Virus record (IMG/VR): IMGVR_UViG_2734482537_000011
Reading direction: 5' to 3' (one strand)
Source of the DNA: a virus
Taxonomy: Duplodnaviria; Heunggongvirae; Uroviricota; Caudoviricetes
DNA: 4,528 nt
The notes under the pieces were generated by a model. That model saw only the letters and a program-made list of their open reading frames with translations, made no database searches and was not told the DNA's origin. Below, piece after piece: positions 1,486 through 4,528 of this stretch; position 1 is the first letter of the stretch, and each line of letters starts with the position of its first letter. A program made the translations under genes and the position numbers.

Positions 1486-1908
1486 ATGGCGAAACCTTTT
1501 ACTCCCGAACAGCGGGAAGAACTGAAGACGCGAATTGTGGAACTCGTGCATCAGGACGGTCGGGTCACGATTCGGCAGTTGTCAGATGAAACAGGTATCA
1601 GTCGTGCGTCTGTCGGTCGCTTATGCATAGAACTGGTCGCAAGTGGTGATGTATATAATTCTGGCTACGGCTTATTCCCGTCTGAACAGGCTCGCAAGGA
1701 CTGGCAAAGCGCCCGCAAAAAACTCTCGAGAGTAAAGGTGAGGAAACCGGTTGTTGTTGATCCGGACCTTATCTGGTCATTACCTGACGGAGAAATACGC
1801 CGCTACGACAGGCGCCTGAATATAATCTGTCGCGAGTGCCGGAAGAGCGAAGCTATGCAGCGTGTACTGGCTTTCTATCAGGGTAATTTTCAGGAGGCGA
1901 TACTGTGA
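1486..1908 (+). CDS. ren: Ren-like winged-helix protein (lambda Ren / Rex-exclusion-resistance family), 140 aa
   Basis: ATG 1486 with AGGAGG at 1476-1481. It sits immediately downstream of the helicase-loader gene, as ren sits after P in lambda. The C-terminus ..NIICRECRKSEAMQRVLAFYQG resembles the lambda Ren C-terminus as I recall it (..NLVFKECRQSAAMKRVLAVYGV), and the N-terminal TIRQLSDETGISRASVGRLCIELVASG looks like a winged HTH. Similarity is from memory and needs an alignment. Confidence 0.5.
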   Translation: MAKPFTPEQREELKTRIVELVHQDGRVTIRQLSDETGISRASVGRLCIELVASGDVYNSGYGLFPSEQARKDWQSARKKLSRVKVRKPVVVDPDLIWSLPDGEIRRYDRRLNIICRECRKSEAMQRVLAFYQGNFQEAIL

Positions 1909-1965
1909 ATGAAATTAGCTATCAGGCTTCAATTACCGCTGGCATTCGCATCAAAGGAGAGGAGC

Positions 1966-2322
1966 ATGGAAATAAAACCAGAAGATGAGTTAAGCAATAT
2001 CGTTTTATTTCCGGTAAAAGAGGATGACCCTCGTAATCAGGTTAATTTTCTTTATGAGCCATCGGAAAGACCATATTGCCATCACGCCTCTGTACGGGTT
2101 GACGAAAAAGAGCGTCAGGTCCGCTGTAAAATCTGCGGTGCGGTTGTGGAGCCGTTTGACTGGATGCTCTCTGTGGCAAAAAGAGAAACCAGACTGGCAG
2201 ATGATGTAAGGCTATTGCGCCAGGAGGAACAGGAAAGGCGGAGAAATATAGAAAAGCTGATACAGATTGAGCGTAACGCGAAAGCGCGGATACGCAGGGC
2301 GACAAAATCCAGAACTGAATAA
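1966..2322 (+). CDS. Hypothetical protein with a zinc-ribbon-like motif and a C-terminal charged coiled-coil-like segment (118 aa from ATG 1966; 137 aa if ATG 1909)
   Basis: Open frame 1909-2322. ATG 1966 has AAGGAG at 1954-1959 with a 6-nt spacer; ATG 1909 abuts the upstream stop and has no SD. Contains YCHHASVRVDEKERQVRCKICGAV (C-H-H ... C-x-x-C) followed by the basic/acidic stretch LLRQEEQERRRNIEKLIQIERNAKARIRR. No family recognised. Confidence 0.5.
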   Translation: MEIKPEDELSNIVLFPVKEDDPRNQVNFLYEPSERPYCHHASVRVDEKERQVRCKICGAVVEPFDWMLSVAKRETRLADDVRLLRQEEQERRRNIEKLIQIERNAKARIRRATKSRTE

Positions 2323-2469
2323 TTAAATTTAGCACTGTTAAAAATTTAATCCTTAACCGGAGGGATTTCTGCACCCTCAAATCATCAGGAGACCACCCGA
2401 AAGGGCGGGGAGCAGTCACACATCTGTTTCCGATAGCCCCGTTCTAATGCTACACTCTTTGATATTTTT

Positions 2470-3156
2470 ATGACCCCAATAAACATATTTATGACAGTTG
2501 CTGATTTCAAACGGCCCAAATTGGAGCTCCCAAACGGGGCAAACAAACTACTACTGCACTCTTGCTGTGCTCCATGTTCCGGTGAGGTGATGGAGGCGCT
2601 TCAGGCCTCGGGAATCGACTACACCATCTTTTTCTACAACCCGAACATTCATCCTCAGAAAGAGTATTTAATTCGTAAGGATGAGAATATTCGCTTTGCT
2701 GAACAACACGGCGTGCCGTTTATTGATGCTGATTACGACACAGACAACTGGTTTGAACGAGCCAAAGGAATGGAATGGGAGCCCGAACGAGGGATCCGTT
2801 GCACCATGTGTTTTGACATGCGTTTTGAGCGGACAGCGCTGTACGCCGCTGAAAATGGTTTCAGTGTGATCAGCAGTTCACTGGGCATTTCACGCTGGAA
2901 AAATATGCAGCAGGTTAACGACTGTGGGCGGCGAGCCGTCGCGCATTATCCGGGCATGGTGTACTGGGATTATAACTGGCGCAAGCAGGGCGGCTCGTCC
3001 CGTATGATTGAAATCAGCAAGCGCGAAAAATTCTATCAGCAGGAATATTGTGGCTGTGTGTATTCTCTGCGCGATACCAATCTACACCGCAAATCTCAGG
3101 GACGCCCTCTTATCAAAATTGGTCAACTCCACTACGGTAAAGAAGAGAAGGAGTGA
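2470..3156 (+). CDS. queH: Epoxyqueuosine reductase QueH homologue (DUF208); alternative start at ATG 2491
   Basis: N-terminal [11 protein letters not shown] is the hallmark cysteine motif of DUF208/QueH; further Cys pairs at RCTMC and YCGC fit Fe-S cluster ligands. Neither ATG 2470 nor 2491 has an obvious Shine-Dalgarno, so the start is uncertain. Confidence 0.8.
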
Positions 3157-3175
3157 TTTTATGGGGCACCTTTCT

Positions 3176-3205
3176 GATTGATTTCATATTGGCGAGGTAA
3201 GTAGA
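3176..3205 (+). promoter_or_regulatory. Candidate sigma70 promoter of the hok/mok mRNA (-35 TTGATT, 18-bp spacer, -10 TAGAAT)
   Basis: TTGATT at 3176-3181 and TAGAAT at 3200-3205. The predicted start near 3212 precedes GCGGGTGCTTGAGGCTATCTGC, which resembles the 5' end of plasmid R1 hok mRNA as recalled (GGCGCUUGAGGCUUUCUGCC). Confidence 0.35.
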
Positions 3206-3269
3206 ATGACTGCGGGTGCTTGAGGCTATCTGCTTCAGGCATGAACACCAAAAGGCAGATAGAGAAAAG

Positions 3270-3335
3270 CCCCAGTTAACATTACGCGTCCGGCAAGACG
3301 CTTAACATTAATCTGAGGCCAATTTCATGCTTTGC
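3270..3335 (-). ncRNA. sok: Sok-like antisense RNA (coordinates approximate; promoter on the - strand at about 3342-3370)
   Basis: On the minus strand: -35 TTGCCT (+ strand 3365-3370), 17-bp spacer, -10 TAACCT (+ strand 3342-3347), placed as in R1 hok/sok where the Sok promoter lies inside the mok start region. The element TAAGAGGCTA (+ strand TAGCCTCTTA, 3346-3355) appears conserved with R1 as recalled. The 3' end was not identified. Confidence 0.35.
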
Positions 3336-3539
3336 ACATGTAGGTTAGCCTCTTACATGCCGAAAGGCAAGGAGAAGCAGGCTATGAAGCAGCAAAAGGC
3401 GATGTTAATCGCCCTGATCGTCATCTGTTTAACCGTCATAGTGACGGCACTGGTAACGAGGAAAGACCTCTGTGAGGTACGAATCCGAACCGGCCAGACG
3501 GAGGTCGCTGTCTTCGTAGACTACGAATCCAGGAAGTAA
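3327..3539 (+). CDS. mok: Mok-like reading frame (N-terminally extended, in frame with hok), 70 aa
   Basis: ATG 3327 in frame with hok gives MLCTCRLASYMPKGKEKQA-MKQQK.., parallel to E. coli MokC (MLNTCR...KEKRA-MKQHK..) as recalled. Confidence 0.5.
   Translation: MLCTCRLASYMPKGKEKQAMKQQKAMLIALIVICLTVIVTALVTRKDLCEVRIRTGQTEVAVFVDYESRK
3384..3539 (+). CDS. hok: Hok/Gef family type I toxin, 51 aa
   Basis: MKQQKAMLIALIVICLTVIVTALVTRKDLCEVRIRTGQTEVAVFVDYESRK is near-identical over most of its length to E. coli HokD/HokC as recalled, including the transmembrane segment and conserved Cys. AGGAG at 3370-3374 lies 9 nt upstream of ATG 3384. Confidence 0.88.
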   Translation: MKQQKAMLIALIVICLTVIVTALVTRKDLCEVRIRTGQTEVAVFVDYESRK

Positions 3540-3616
3540 GAGTGACCGGGCGGGGAGCTGATCCCATCCCCGCCCACCTCTGATGTGTCAGGCATCCTCA
3601 ACGCACCCGCACTTAA

Positions 3617-3659
3617 CCCGCCCATCGCTGTGATCTCTCAGCGTTTCGGCGGGTTTTTT
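3617..3659 (+). terminator. Rho-independent terminator of the hok mRNA
   Basis: CCCGCC (3617-3622) pairs with GGCGGG (3648-3653), with an inner CGCTG/CAGCG stem, followed by TTTTTT (3654-3659) and further T-rich sequence. Confidence 0.6.
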
Positions 3660-3679
3660 GTTGTTTATTTCCGGTGAAT

Positions 3680-3707
3680 TTGATTCGCGCACCTTCGCAG
3701 ATAGAAT
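3680..3707 (+). promoter_or_regulatory. Candidate sigma70 promoter (-35 TTGATT, 16-bp spacer, -10 TAGAAT) upstream of the 95-aa ORF
   Basis: TTGATT at 3680-3685 and TAGAAT at 3702-3707, located just after the hok terminator and about 80 bp before ATG 3789. Same hexamers as the hok promoter candidate. Confidence 0.3.
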
Positions 3708-3788
3708 CGACTCACTTAAGTAGCGCGCAGGGAGAAGAGGGATGGACCCCGAACAGGGGAGAGCTATTTATCTGGAAGGATTCTGAAG

Positions 3789-4076
3789 ATGAAAATCGAA
3801 GAATTGCGTGAAATTTTTAGTGAAAATGGCCTCTATGCTGTGCGCGTTGAGAATGGAGCGATTGTCAGCCATTGCCGCATTAGATGTTTGCAATCTCAAC
3901 AAAGGAAGAGCGGTGCTGTGTTATTTTATTTTTGTAATGGACTTCTGACGGACGGTTTTATTTTGCGTGAGGACGAATTTGTCACATCATTACGGGTTTT
4001 GAAAGAGATTGGTTTTAAGGCTGGTTTTCTGCTTTTGCTGAAGAATAAACTCATCTACAATCTTGAGCAGGATTGA
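3789..4076 (+). CDS. Hypothetical protein, 95 aa, AT-rich orphan gene
   Basis: ATG 3789 with GGAAGGA at 3776-3782. Intact ORF with no recognisable motif. Composition is visibly more AT-rich than the flanking genes, with several T-runs. Confidence 0.45.
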   Translation: MKIEELREIFSENGLYAVRVENGAIVSHCRIRCLQSQQRKSGAVLFYFCNGLLTDGFILREDEFVTSLRVLKEIGFKAGFLLLLKNKLIYNLEQD

Positions 4077-4114: not shown

Positions 4115-4468
4115 ATGGCACATATACAACTGGTCAAACAAACCTCTTCCGGATTACTTCTCCCGGCGACGCCGGAGAGTTGCGATTTTCTGCATCAAAT
4201 CAAAATAGGTGAGTGGATACACGCAGACTTTAAGCGTGTGTGTAACTACGCATTCCACAAGCGTTTTTTCAAACTCCTGCAACTGGGTTTCGATTACTGG
4301 ACTCCGGTCGGTGGGGCGATCACGCCTCGCGAACGAAAACTGGTGTCCGGTTTCGTTGATTACCTGTGTGAATCAGTAGGCCGGGAACATACGCCAGCTC
4401 TGAGCGAAGCCGCAGAGCAATTGAGGTGTACTGGCAATAGCGGACACTACCATTTGTTCTTTTTTTAA
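4115..4468 (+). CDS. DUF1367-like lambdoid nin-region protein (start ATG 4115, not the TTG at 4073); possibly truncated or frameshifted at its 3' end
   Basis: GGAG at 4104-4107 lies 7 nt upstream of ATG 4115 (MAHIQLVKQTSSGLLLPATPE..). The segment FHKRFFKLLQLGFDYWTPVGGAITPRERKL matches my recollection of the conserved core of DUF1367 phage proteins. The ORF ends at a T7 tract while frame 1 stays open to the window end. Confidence 0.5.
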   Translation: MAHIQLVKQTSSGLLLPATPESCDFLHQIKIGEWIHADFKRVCNYAFHKRFFKLLQLGFDYWTPVGGAITPRERKLVSGFVDYLCESVGREHTPALSEAAEQLRCTGNSGHYHLFFF

Positions 4469-4528
4469 GCAGCCATCTGATGATATTTTTCCCTGAAGGC
4501 TGCCGGGGAGATATTCCCCAGACGAGAG

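Follow-up and report, generated by a model that had tools for sequence, protein, structure and literature searches.

Introduction

Why should a lambdoid prophage carry queH, a gene for the last step of queuosine synthesis, into bacteria that already have queG for the same step? QueH is a cobalamin-independent iron-sulfur enzyme that converts oQ34 (epoxyqueuosine) to Q34 (queuosine) in tRNA-Asp, tRNA-Asn, tRNA-His and tRNA-Tyr, and E. coli is unable to make cobalamin de novo. QueH is a non-orthologous replacement of QueG (PMC5372724), and the conversion of oQ to Q in E. coli is cobalamin-dependent (Frey 1988, as cited in PMC4646009). In S. aureus, which has both enzymes, their differing expression profiles have been attributed to cofactor availability (PMC13443448). 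Queuosine status influences how codons for Asp, Asn, His and Tyr are decoded, and links to biofilm formation and to virulence have been drawn (PMC10570037).

The gene considered here lies in a 4,528-nucleotide stretch of viral DNA (IMG/VR record IMGVR_UViG_2734482537_000011), which we refer to as the window. An earlier note on this DNA had read the gene as a prophage-borne queH, acting as a moron in the nin region and possibly expressed independently. PGAP annotation already names queH, so the enzyme is known and it is the genomic setting that is new. A published survey reported no QueA, QueG or QueH among the viruses that it analysed (PMC6884629), a statement that the prophage gene now qualifies. 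In our literature search no paper described a QueH carried by phages or prophages of E. coli; Zallot 2017 may mention such copies.

Identity of the encoded protein

An uninterrupted open reading frame spans 2470–3156 on the + strand and encodes 228 amino acids. The motifs HSCCAPCS, RCTMC and YCGC, from which the earlier note proposed membership of the QueH (DUF208) family, can all be read directly in this sequence, and a profile search bears the assignment out. The Pfam QueH model PF02677 matched residues 27–201 over model positions 1–174 of 175 with E=1.9e-65 and 220.6 bits, where the curated cut-off is 23.5 bits; the match is far beyond chance. A HMMER comparison with the sequence of PDB entry 7lc5, QueH of T. 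maritima, gave E=5e-22. No model in the NCBIfam library matched the reading frame, although PGAP names the protein.

The AF2 model of the protein (mean pLDDT 77, pTM 0.78) superimposes on 7lc5 with a TM score of 0.85 and an rmsd of 2.5 Å. When the model was compared by Foldseek, with TM values normalised to the target, the best five matches were all T. maritima QueH (E of about 1e-10, TM 0.81–0.86, rmsd 2.5–3.0 Å), followed by TtuA and LarE with E values of 6e-5 or weaker. The predicted structure has the fold of solved QueH.

The translated sequence also carries the conserved QueH cysteine pattern CCxP(C/D)...CxxC...CxC, which we take to be the metal-centre ligands of the solved T. maritima enzyme. 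In 221-residue numbering, the CCAPC motif (2563–2577, + strand) contributes Cys25, Cys26 and Cys29, aligned to T. maritima Cys9, Cys10 and Asp13; the CTMC motif (2800–2811, +) contributes Cys104 and Cys107, with codons at 2800–2802 and 2809–2811, aligned to C87 and C90; and the CGC motif (3049–3057, +) contributes Cys187 and Cys189, with codons at 3049–3051 and 3055–3057, aligned to C169 and C171. The ligand positions expected from the motifs are therefore kept in the alignment to 7lc5, and the seven cysteines are invariant across 27 orthologues. A member of this family would be expected to bind a [4Fe-4S] cluster and an additional iron. Position 13 is Asp in T. maritima and Cys in the window protein, Cys being the commoner state in the family: among 113 motif-bearing family representatives, CCAPC is found in 103 and CCAPD in three. 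The PDB includes structures of the C9S and D13N mutants of T. maritima QueH.

Over the whole domain, identity to T. maritima QueH (PDB 7lc5, 7lc7 and 9deu; DUF208, PF02677, COG1636) is about 30%, and the two proteins share the full-length Pfam match, the predicted fold and the CC..CxxC..CxC cysteines. Unlike the solved enzyme, which has a chromosomal locus, the window protein is prophage-borne, is longer by about 19 residues at its N terminus and ends in a basic tail of about 20 residues, which Enterobacterales have conserved.

Start codon

Two in-frame ATG codons could begin the protein, at 2470 and at 2491, the former adding seven residues. The 2470 start given earlier is probably wrong: PGAP places the start at 2491, and in the alignment of chromosomal orthologues the ATG at 2491 is invariant, while at the codon of 2470 Enterobacter hormaechei has ATT and Scandinavium CAC. 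In the comparison of the window with phage HannyBb, the seven extra codons contain three amino acid changes and the remaining 221 codons five non-synonymous differences. The true start is most likely ATG 2491, and we take the coding sequence as 2491–3156 (+ strand, 221 amino acids) on the combined basis of the Pfam match, 7lc5, the AF2 model, PGAP, start conservation and dN/dS; both ATGs may nevertheless be used. Inspection of the sequence confirmed the lack of a clear Shine-Dalgarno, as no purine-rich element precedes either ATG. Where gene callers start the protein at Met41, the catalytic CCAPC motif is lost.

Genomic context

The gene belongs to the early-right part of a lambdoid prophage, with the replication genes on one side and NinB/Q on the other, which agrees with the nin-region location first assigned to it. 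Here queH occupies a variable cargo slot found in Rac/Qin-type prophages between a DUF977 gene and hok/sok. The usual left border is the DUF977/Ren-like gene (1486–1908, + strand; Pfam DUF977 E=1e-33; phrog_142, "Ren-like exclusion protein"), which most of the IMG/VR prophage loci have directly 5' of queH. The right border is the hok/mok/sok type I toxin-antitoxin locus (3214–3539, +), recognised by Rfam, Pfam and open reading frame calls: sok at 3214–3389 (117 bits) is the sole Rfam match, the hok frame at 3384–3539 matches Pfam Hok/Gef with E=4e-23, and the mok frame spans 3327–3539. A promoter scan placed a promoter-like TTGATT-18-TAGAAT at 3178–3207, in the hok/mok/sok region. The description of queH as lying between ren and hok is thus correct downstream, while upstream a Zn-ribbon reading frame of unassigned function (1966–2322, +; phrog_1621; PGAP CDS 11644–12000 of the prophage L001), present in only a subset of queH prophages, separates it from the Ren-like gene. 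This frame ends at 2322, in keeping with the 147-bp upstream spacer noted before.

Other prophages hold an NgoMIV-type R-M system, a DUF1971 gene or a 449-aa reverse-strand frame in the same slot. Among 5426 complete E. coli genomes queH was found in 995, and the adjoining hok region matched 4344. The queH–hok junction is the same in at least 851 of the 995. All 5426 genomes have queG, and every queH-positive genome consequently has both genes. It appears that these prophages have spread queH to about 18%, roughly one in five, of E. coli and Shigella genomes.

In the window itself, the prophage is a remnant that two IS600 copies and frameshifts have broken up, and queH has survived in it. The end of one copy, identified by IS600 comparison (1–106, − strand), cuts an O-like replication gene that is also frameshifted, and the start of a second copy in the same orientation (4421–4528, −) truncates NinB/DUF1367, leaving a NinB frame of 117 aa compared with 199 aa in L001. 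The isolated phage HannyBb also carries queH. The sequence named "Acinetobacter phage MD-2021a" (78% amino acid identity) was not counted as evidence from a phage, given its size (328–378 kb) and its "putative prophage protein" label.

Origin of the queH cassette

The statement that enterobacteria normally use QueG holds for E. coli and is too broad for the wider group, many Enterobacterales having a chromosomal queH. Chromosomal genes with 78–92% amino acid identity occur in Enterobacter, Kluyvera, Erwinia, Serratia, Proteus, Providencia, Pectobacterium and others, the relatives in E. hormaechei, Scandinavium and Kluyvera ascorbata reaching 91–92% at the amino acid and 83–85% at the nucleotide level. 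These close relatives are flanked by metabolic and regulatory genes, unlike the window copy, which stands between phage genes; the E. hormaechei copy adjoins an integrase fragment.

Homology to these chromosomal loci extends beyond the coding sequence by no more than about 65 bp on the upstream side and 7 bp on the downstream side, covering 2427–3163 for E. hormaechei and 2443–3160 for Scandinavium. The block shared with E. coli prophages begins at about 2420 (query position 98 of 2323–3330), and phages that do not have queH regain homology at 3159 (mEp460) or 3194 (933W). What is common to chromosomal loci and E. coli prophages is a block of about 740 bp (2420–3163, + strand) that we read as a captured cassette of promoter, 5' leader and coding sequence. 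In a neighbour-joining tree, drawn without bootstrap, the prophage alleles group with HannyBb in a single clade, whose position is nested among Scandinavium, E. hormaechei and Kluyvera. The cassette was apparently captured once, to judge from these comparisons, from a chromosome like those of Enterobacter, Scandinavium or Kluyvera.

Promoter and flanking signals

The leader contains a predicted extended −10 element, TGCTACACT (2448–2456, + strand; TG at 2448–2449, TACACT at 2451–2456), with a predicted transcription start near 2463. It is unchanged in a six-sequence alignment while its flanks diverge, and the chromosomal Enterobacteriaceae genes have the same element at the same distance as well as the same start codon. 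More widely, about 24 of 82 loci have TGnTAnnnT 103–112 nt 5' of the codon for the His in HSCCAPC, where by our own estimate fewer than one would be expected by chance; these loci include Enterobacter, Scandinavium, Kluyvera, Erwinia sp., Sodalis and Acerihabitans, and their upstream DNA is otherwise unalignable. The candidate promoter element is therefore conserved at a fixed offset across Enterobacterales queH loci. The ST70 allele has TACACA, having lost the final T.

The promoter first proposed, TTCCGA-N17-TACACT (2428–2456), survives in its −10 half, which falls within the conserved element and gains the TG. Its −35 is probably wrong: TTCCGA (2428–2433, +) agrees with TTGACA in three of its six bases and is common only to the window and E. 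hormaechei, not being conserved elsewhere, and the full promoter scored 7 of 12 and was not reported by the consensus scan.

A scan of 1850–3800 found no terminator-like site, and the region downstream of queH (3140–3260) folds into hairpins with no T-tract. Structured RNA flanking the gene was considered and rejected, as the fold of 2323–2500 is unremarkable (z = −1.4), that of 3140–3260 (z = −2.1) belongs to the hok leader region, and Rfam yields only sok. Base composition is not distinct, GC being 0.46–0.55 in queH and 0.40–0.56 in its flanks. The label of moron consequently fits in part. Like the lambdoid morons bor and lom of lambda, queH is additional to the phage genes around it, and at one position in a recombination hot spot some related prophages have it and others do not. 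The conserved upstream element is a candidate for a promoter of its own. Unlike those morons, queH has neither its own terminator nor a deviating base composition.

Intactness and selection

All 100 queH copies examined from Escherichia, Shigella and IMG/VR are intact, and apparent disruptions in distant orthologues were artefacts of start-codon offsets. The window gene differs from the commonest allele by 19 synonymous and two non-synonymous changes, and from the ST70 allele by 40 and nine. With dN/dS of 0.01–0.05 at dS of 0.15–0.37, queH is under purifying selection, although recombination with alleles on chromosomes, and not selection acting within prophages, could account for part of the low ratio.

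Role of the prophage gene

We think it probable that the window encodes a functional QueH, carried on a singly captured cassette with its promoter, and that by lysogenic conversion it serves the lysogen as a B12-independent back-up. The reading frame would specify an active enzyme; the cassette of about 740 bp, with the gene and its native extended −10, would have been captured once from an Enterobacteriaceae chromosome and have landed in the slot that the DUF977/Ren-like gene and hok/sok delimit in Rac/Qin-type lambdoid phages, which as prophages would carry it into E. coli and Shigella strains. There queH would be expressed from the repressed prophage, and phage QueH would complete queuosine synthesis under B12 scarcity as a metabolic back-up. 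QueG needs cobalamin and E. coli has no de novo supply; therefore QueH plausibly finishes queuosine when B12 is scarce, and we infer that its role is most likely that of a cobalamin-independent back-up for epoxyqueuosine reduction. The two enzymes share the predicted reaction and co-occur in every queH-positive E. coli genome, and they differ in family, being non-orthologous, and in cofactor requirement (PMC5372724; PMC4646009); queG is a core gene, while queH is accessory and phage-borne.

Several observations count against this explanation, namely the missing Shine-Dalgarno, the lack of an own terminator, the weak −35 and the loss of the final T from the ST70 −10. We know of no growth phenotype that separates oQ from Q, and for this reason the selective benefit of queH is conjectural. 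An E. coli metE mutant supplied with cobamides, for example, grows no differently once queG is deleted (PMC11841063). That phage queH is a true lysogenic-conversion gene, expressed from the captured promoter in the repressed prophage and freeing lysogens from the need for B12, is a possibility that we hold to be less likely than not.

Alternatively, QueH could serve the phage, being made after induction or infection in the rightward early transcript and providing Q34 for the decoding of late mRNA, with little gain for the lysogen. The gene is co-oriented with the replication and nin genes with no terminator on either side, so read-through from the early promoter is expected; tRNA-related cargo is frequent in phages, a tRNA cluster lies downstream in this type of prophage, and the free phage HannyBb has the gene. 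We nevertheless regard a benefit to the phage as unlikely. The cassette has kept a conserved promoter of chromosomal origin, queH is intact in the replication-defective, IS600-cut remnant where a lytic cycle is impossible, the prophage tRNAs (Ile, Arg, Thr and Gly) are not Q substrates, and a single lytic round leaves little time for re-modifying the tRNA pool.

It is more improbable that queH is a neutral passenger, held in a recombination hot spot beside the addictive hok/sok with no benefit to phage or host. Such a gene might well share its slot with unrelated cargo, keep one junction with hok in most of its genomes and duplicate a function that queG already supplies; it would not be expected to remain intact in every copy with the dN/dS found at these synonymous distances, nor to conserve a non-coding promoter element.

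To our knowledge oQ is known only on tRNA, and we give very little credence to a re-purposing of QueH for another substrate, in 7-deazaguanine modification of phage DNA, or in an anti-defence role, as had been suggested, or a defence role linked to queuosine-pathway systems: such DNA modifications (PMC6884629) and QueC-like defence proteins (PMC13639016) exist in phage biology and the slot holds defence-type cargo in other prophages, but PADLOC gave no match above noise for QueH or its neighbours, the protein has kept its high identity to chromosomal orthologues with no accelerated evolution, and, unlike in phage systems that pair DpdA with the preQ0 pathway, no DpdA/Tgt, FolE or QueC/D/E is annotated in a near-identical complete prophage of about 42 kb.

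Implications

The last step of queuosine synthesis in E. coli relies on a scavenged vitamin, and a phage-delivered, B12-independent bypass would be a simple and testable case of a prophage rewiring the tRNA modification of its host. If the back-up role is correct, about one fifth of E. coli and Shigella strains would complete queuosine without scavenged vitamin B12, and differences between strains in Q and oQ content would track prophage content. The decoding of NAU and NAC codons, together with biofilm and virulence traits, would then shift in B12-poor niches such as the inflamed gut, and sensitivity to toxins that cut tRNAs with a Q anticodon, such as colicin E5, might change. This would be the first tRNA-hypermodification enzyme shown as prophage cargo that benefits the host. 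PHROG 3217, listed as of "unknown function", and the "hypothetical protein" of HannyBb can now be named QueH.

Identity of the prophage protein

The open reading frame at 2470-3156 on the plus strand encodes 228 amino acids without interruption in a scan of the window, and its translation contains the HSCCAPCS, RCTMC and YCGC motifs from which the earlier note had recognized a QueH. A profile search agrees with that assignment: residues 27-201 cover positions 1-174 of the 175 in the Pfam model PF02677 (QueH, DUF208) and score 220.6 bits (E=1.9e-65), far over the cut-off of 23.5 bits. The solved structures matched by sequence belong to one family only, that of Thermotoga maritima QueH (7lc5, E=5e-22). 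An AlphaFold2 model built from 27 orthologues (mean pLDDT 77, pTM 0.78) fits all five T. maritima QueH entries, at target-normalised TM-scores of 0.81-0.86, rmsd values of 2.5-3.0 Å and E of about 1e-10, and the next structural matches are TtuA, LarE and other PP-loop enzymes at E 6e-5 or weaker and TM 0.28-0.53.

Alignment with the T. maritima enzyme shows the cysteine ligand positions to be intact. Numbered from the ATG at 2491, Cys25 and Cys26 correspond to C9 and C10, Cys104/Cys107 to C87/C90 and Cys187/Cys189 to C169/C171, and all seven cysteines are invariant across 27 orthologues from different genera. In T. maritima QueH the ligand residues presumably divide between a [4Fe-4S] cluster and an extra iron. 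The two proteins differ at the remaining cysteine, Cys29, which is Asp13 in T. maritima; structures of the C9S and D13N mutants have been deposited in the PDB, which marks these positions as mechanistically important. As CCAPC occurs in 103 of 150 QueH family representatives and CCAPD in only three, the cysteine at this position is predicted to be no defect. By sequence and model, every computational test of QueH membership was passed, and the predicted protein lacks none of the ligand residues and is modelled in the fold expected of the family.

The last ~20 residues (window 3092-3153), past the Pfam domain, form a basic tail in which R200, R205, I208, G211 and Y215 are among the residues invariant in Enterobacterales orthologues. 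T. maritima QueH, with 192 amino acids and a domain end near residue 178, has no counterpart of this tail, which may contact tRNA. The NCBIfam HMM library (release 20.0) gave no match to the protein encoded by 2491-3156 despite its PGAP name of 'epoxyqueuosine reductase QueH', so that name must derive from another rule type.

The start at 2470 proposed earlier is disfavoured. We place it at the second ATG, 2491, because this is the PGAP start in a 99.9%-identical E. coli copy, because in alignments with chromosomal orthologues Enterobacter hormaechei has ATT and Scandinavium CAC at the 2470 codon while ATG 2491 and the codons that follow are invariant, and because the seven-codon stretch from 2470 to 2491 contains three amino-acid changes (manual count) between the window and Escherichia phage HannyBb, against five non-synonymous differences in the other 221 codons. 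The two ATGs are in frame and it is possible that both are used; neither is preceded by a Shine-Dalgarno sequence, of which the earlier note had seen no clear one for the ORF. Within 2581-2592 a further in-frame ATG, at 2590 (Met41), follows the Shine-Dalgarno-like GGTGAGGTG. Many database proteins start at Met41 and are without the CCAPC motif, and PHROG 3217 ('unknown function', 188 positions) matches residues 41-228 only. The Met41 start is probably a recurrent, systematic gene-calling artefact that removes CCAPC; a genuine short isoform is possible.

An apparently captured cassette and its predicted promoter

At the nucleotide level, chromosomal queH loci align with the window only over 2427-3163 in the case of E. 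hormaechei (83.5% identity) and over 2443-3160 in that of Scandinavium (84.9%). The block common to the E. coli prophages starts at about 2420, and in queH-less phages homology to the window resumes at 3159 or 3194. These boundaries define a mobile unit of ~740 bp, comprising the coding sequence with ~70 bp upstream and ~7 bp downstream.

The upstream portion includes the TACACT of a promoter, TTCCGA-N17-TACACT, suggested in the earlier note. The sequence TGCTACACT at 2448-2456 is invariant in six of six aligned sequences, and its flanks diverge. With 82 queH loci lined up by the HSCCAPC His codon, about 24 showed a TGnTAnnnT motif 103-112 nt upstream of this codon, among them loci of Enterobacter species, Kluyvera, an Erwinia species, Sodalis and Acerihabitans. 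There the motif takes the form TGCTACAAT or TGCTATATT within upstream DNA that is otherwise unalignable with the window, and several other Erwinia loci lack the TG but have, in that region, a hexamer resembling TACACT, TAAACT or TACAAT. The chance expectation was estimated at less than one locus, the 82 loci not being phylogenetically independent. Such a conserved motif at a fixed offset is the signature of a predicted extended -10 promoter, so TACACT is very likely a real -10 element. TTCCGA is probably not the -35 element, since it matches at three of six positions and is common only to the window and E. hormaechei; the full site falls under the threshold of a consensus scan. Description of the gene as a moron is apt in its presence or absence among relatives and probably in its own promoter, but no terminator was found on either side of queH and its base composition gave no distinct signal against the surroundings.

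Outside Escherichia and Shigella the nearest relatives are from E. hormaechei (92% amino acid identity), Scandinavium and Kluyvera (91%) and other Enterobacter (86-89%), followed at 78-86% by Erwinia, Serratia, Kosakonia, Pectobacterium, Proteus, Providencia and others. The prophage alleles and HannyBb form one clade inside the Scandinavium, E. hormaechei and Kluyvera group in a neighbour-joining tree without bootstrap. Chromosomal queH genes are flanked by, among others, LysR and GntR regulators, oxidoreductases, a glycosyl hydrolase and a glycogen-phosphorylase-like protein, and none of the window's phage genes occur in these flanks. Because queH orthologues are so widespread in the order, being chromosomal in many genera, the premise that enterobacteria use QueG holds for E. 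coli and not order-wide. The chromosomal queH of E. hormaechei B56 is nearest to the prophage allele, and directly upstream of it lies a 234-amino-acid phage-integrase-family fragment (locus L005, 5181-5885). Together with the lack of synteny among queH loci of different Enterobacter species, this fragment indicates that queH may be mobile within Enterobacteriaceae chromosomes too.

An intact gene in a prophage remnant

The gene order in the window is O-like replication initiator, DnaC-like loader (ydaV type), DUF977 or 'Ren-like exclusion protein', Zn-ribbon ORF (phrog_1621), queH, hok/mok/sok, small ORF (phrog_340) and NinB/DUF1367. The position between ren and hok given previously is therefore correct for hok downstream, but the gene directly upstream is the Zn-ribbon ORF. 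A 99.9%-identical copy lies in a complete prophage of ~42 kb between ybhA and pgl in E. coli FDAARGOS_944. This prophage carries an integrase, RecE, a cI/Cro pair, YdaT, the genes listed above, antiterminator-region genes, four tRNAs and genes for lysis, heads and tails, together with an ipaHb effector. This gene content bears out the lambdoid, early-right (nin-type) label. The tRNA cluster (locus L001, 15423-15733) comprises Ile, Arg, Thr and Gly, none of which is a queuosine substrate. At the far end of the prophage, ipaHb (locus L167, 16761-18587), which encodes a type III secretion effector, points to a Shigella/EIEC-type host.

Two IS600 (IS3 family) copies in the same orientation bracket a 4.3-kb segment; their ends occupy 1-106, cutting the O-like gene, and 4421-4528, truncating NinB/DUF1367, with NinB shortened to 117 amino acids. 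Full copies are present at 2308-3573 and 7952-9217 of a 100%-identical IMG/VR contig (L085). The pair resembles a composite transposon, but may be no more than a product of IS600 proliferation in a genome of Shigella type. Relative to the intact 262-amino-acid CDS of FDAARGOS_944, two indels, in an A-run near 318-325 and near 455, split the O-like gene (80-782) over three reading frames. The prophage in the window is a replication-defective remnant, within which queH is intact, and the same queH sequence occurs in 14 other loci. A run of 250 N at 1220-1469 stands for 314 nt of the loader gene, so the masking is not length-preserving and coordinates beyond it are offset by 64 nt from those of identical genomes.

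Prevalence, selection and possible role

Of 5426 complete E. coli genomes, 995 carry the queH coding sequence (985 of them with coverage of at least 80%), nearly always as a single chromosomal copy with the PGAP name 'epoxyqueuosine reductase QueH'; carriers include E. coli 042, APEC O1, O104:H4 and some O157:H7. Every one of the 5426 also has queG, so that QueH in E. coli only ever comes as an additional enzyme. Among 50,697 phage genomes on deposit, the sole carrier of queH is that of Escherichia phage HannyBb (96.5% amino acid identity), where the gene is labelled 'hypothetical protein'. The identity of queH is not new, because automated annotation already names it in about a thousand complete genomes, and it is the setting as phage or prophage cargo that appears to be new. 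A survey of viral 7-deazaguanine genes reported QueA, QueG and QueH homologues to be absent from the viruses analysed (PMC6884629). Our literature search on QueH as phage or prophage cargo found no paper; Zallot 2017, which lay outside that search, may mention such copies.

All 100 extracted Escherichia, Shigella and IMG/VR copies are intact. The window differs from the commonest allele by 19 synonymous and 2 non-synonymous changes (dS 0.15, dN/dS 0.025), from the ST70 allele by 40 and 9 (dN/dS 0.047) and from E. hormaechei queH by 85 and 17 (dN/dS 0.025). On these counts the constraint appears to be housekeeping-grade and to have been kept up during residence in prophages. Prophage queH is under strong purifying selection, has carried a conserved predicted promoter along with it and always accompanies QueG.

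E. coli does not synthesize cobalamin de novo. On balance, the sequence evidence favours the prophage supplying its host with a B12-independent route to complete queuosine. Published work describes the epoxyqueuosine-to-queuosine reaction of E. coli as cobalamin-dependent (Frey 1988, cited in PMC4646009) and QueH as standing in for QueG as the reductase in QueG-less bacteria (PMC5372724, citing Zallot 2017). S. aureus has both QueH and QueG, and the differing expression profiles of the two enzymes in that species have been attributed to cofactor availability (PMC13443448). A role for QueH mainly in the lytic cycle of the phage is unlikely, neutral hitch-hiking beside hok/sok is improbable and a re-purposed QueH with a non-tRNA role is highly improbable. 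Against these readings stand the survival of queH in a dead prophage, its very low dN/dS and the lack of a defence signature and, in the annotation of the near-identical complete prophage, of DpdA and preQ0-pathway genes. For a B12-independent supply to the host, queH would probably be expressed constitutively from the extended -10 promoter, with early-transcript read-through probably adding to expression after induction.

The insertion slot

Across 80 IMG/VR viral contigs and five annotated genomes queH always follows DUF977, with the Zn-ribbon ORF present or absent between them, and usually lies upstream of hok/sok; the queH-hok junction is unchanged in at least 851 E. coli genomes. Other cargo is also found in this slot, a hot spot bounded by DUF977 and hok/NinB. 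In O157:H7 Z1767 it holds a Dcm methylase and an NgoMIV-type restriction endonuclease downstream of queH (L166, 5851-7861), in an ST70 strain a DUF1971 gene (L164, 6282-6620), and in the queH-less phage mEp460 a reverse-strand ORF of 449 amino acids and unknown function (L168, 1642-2991).
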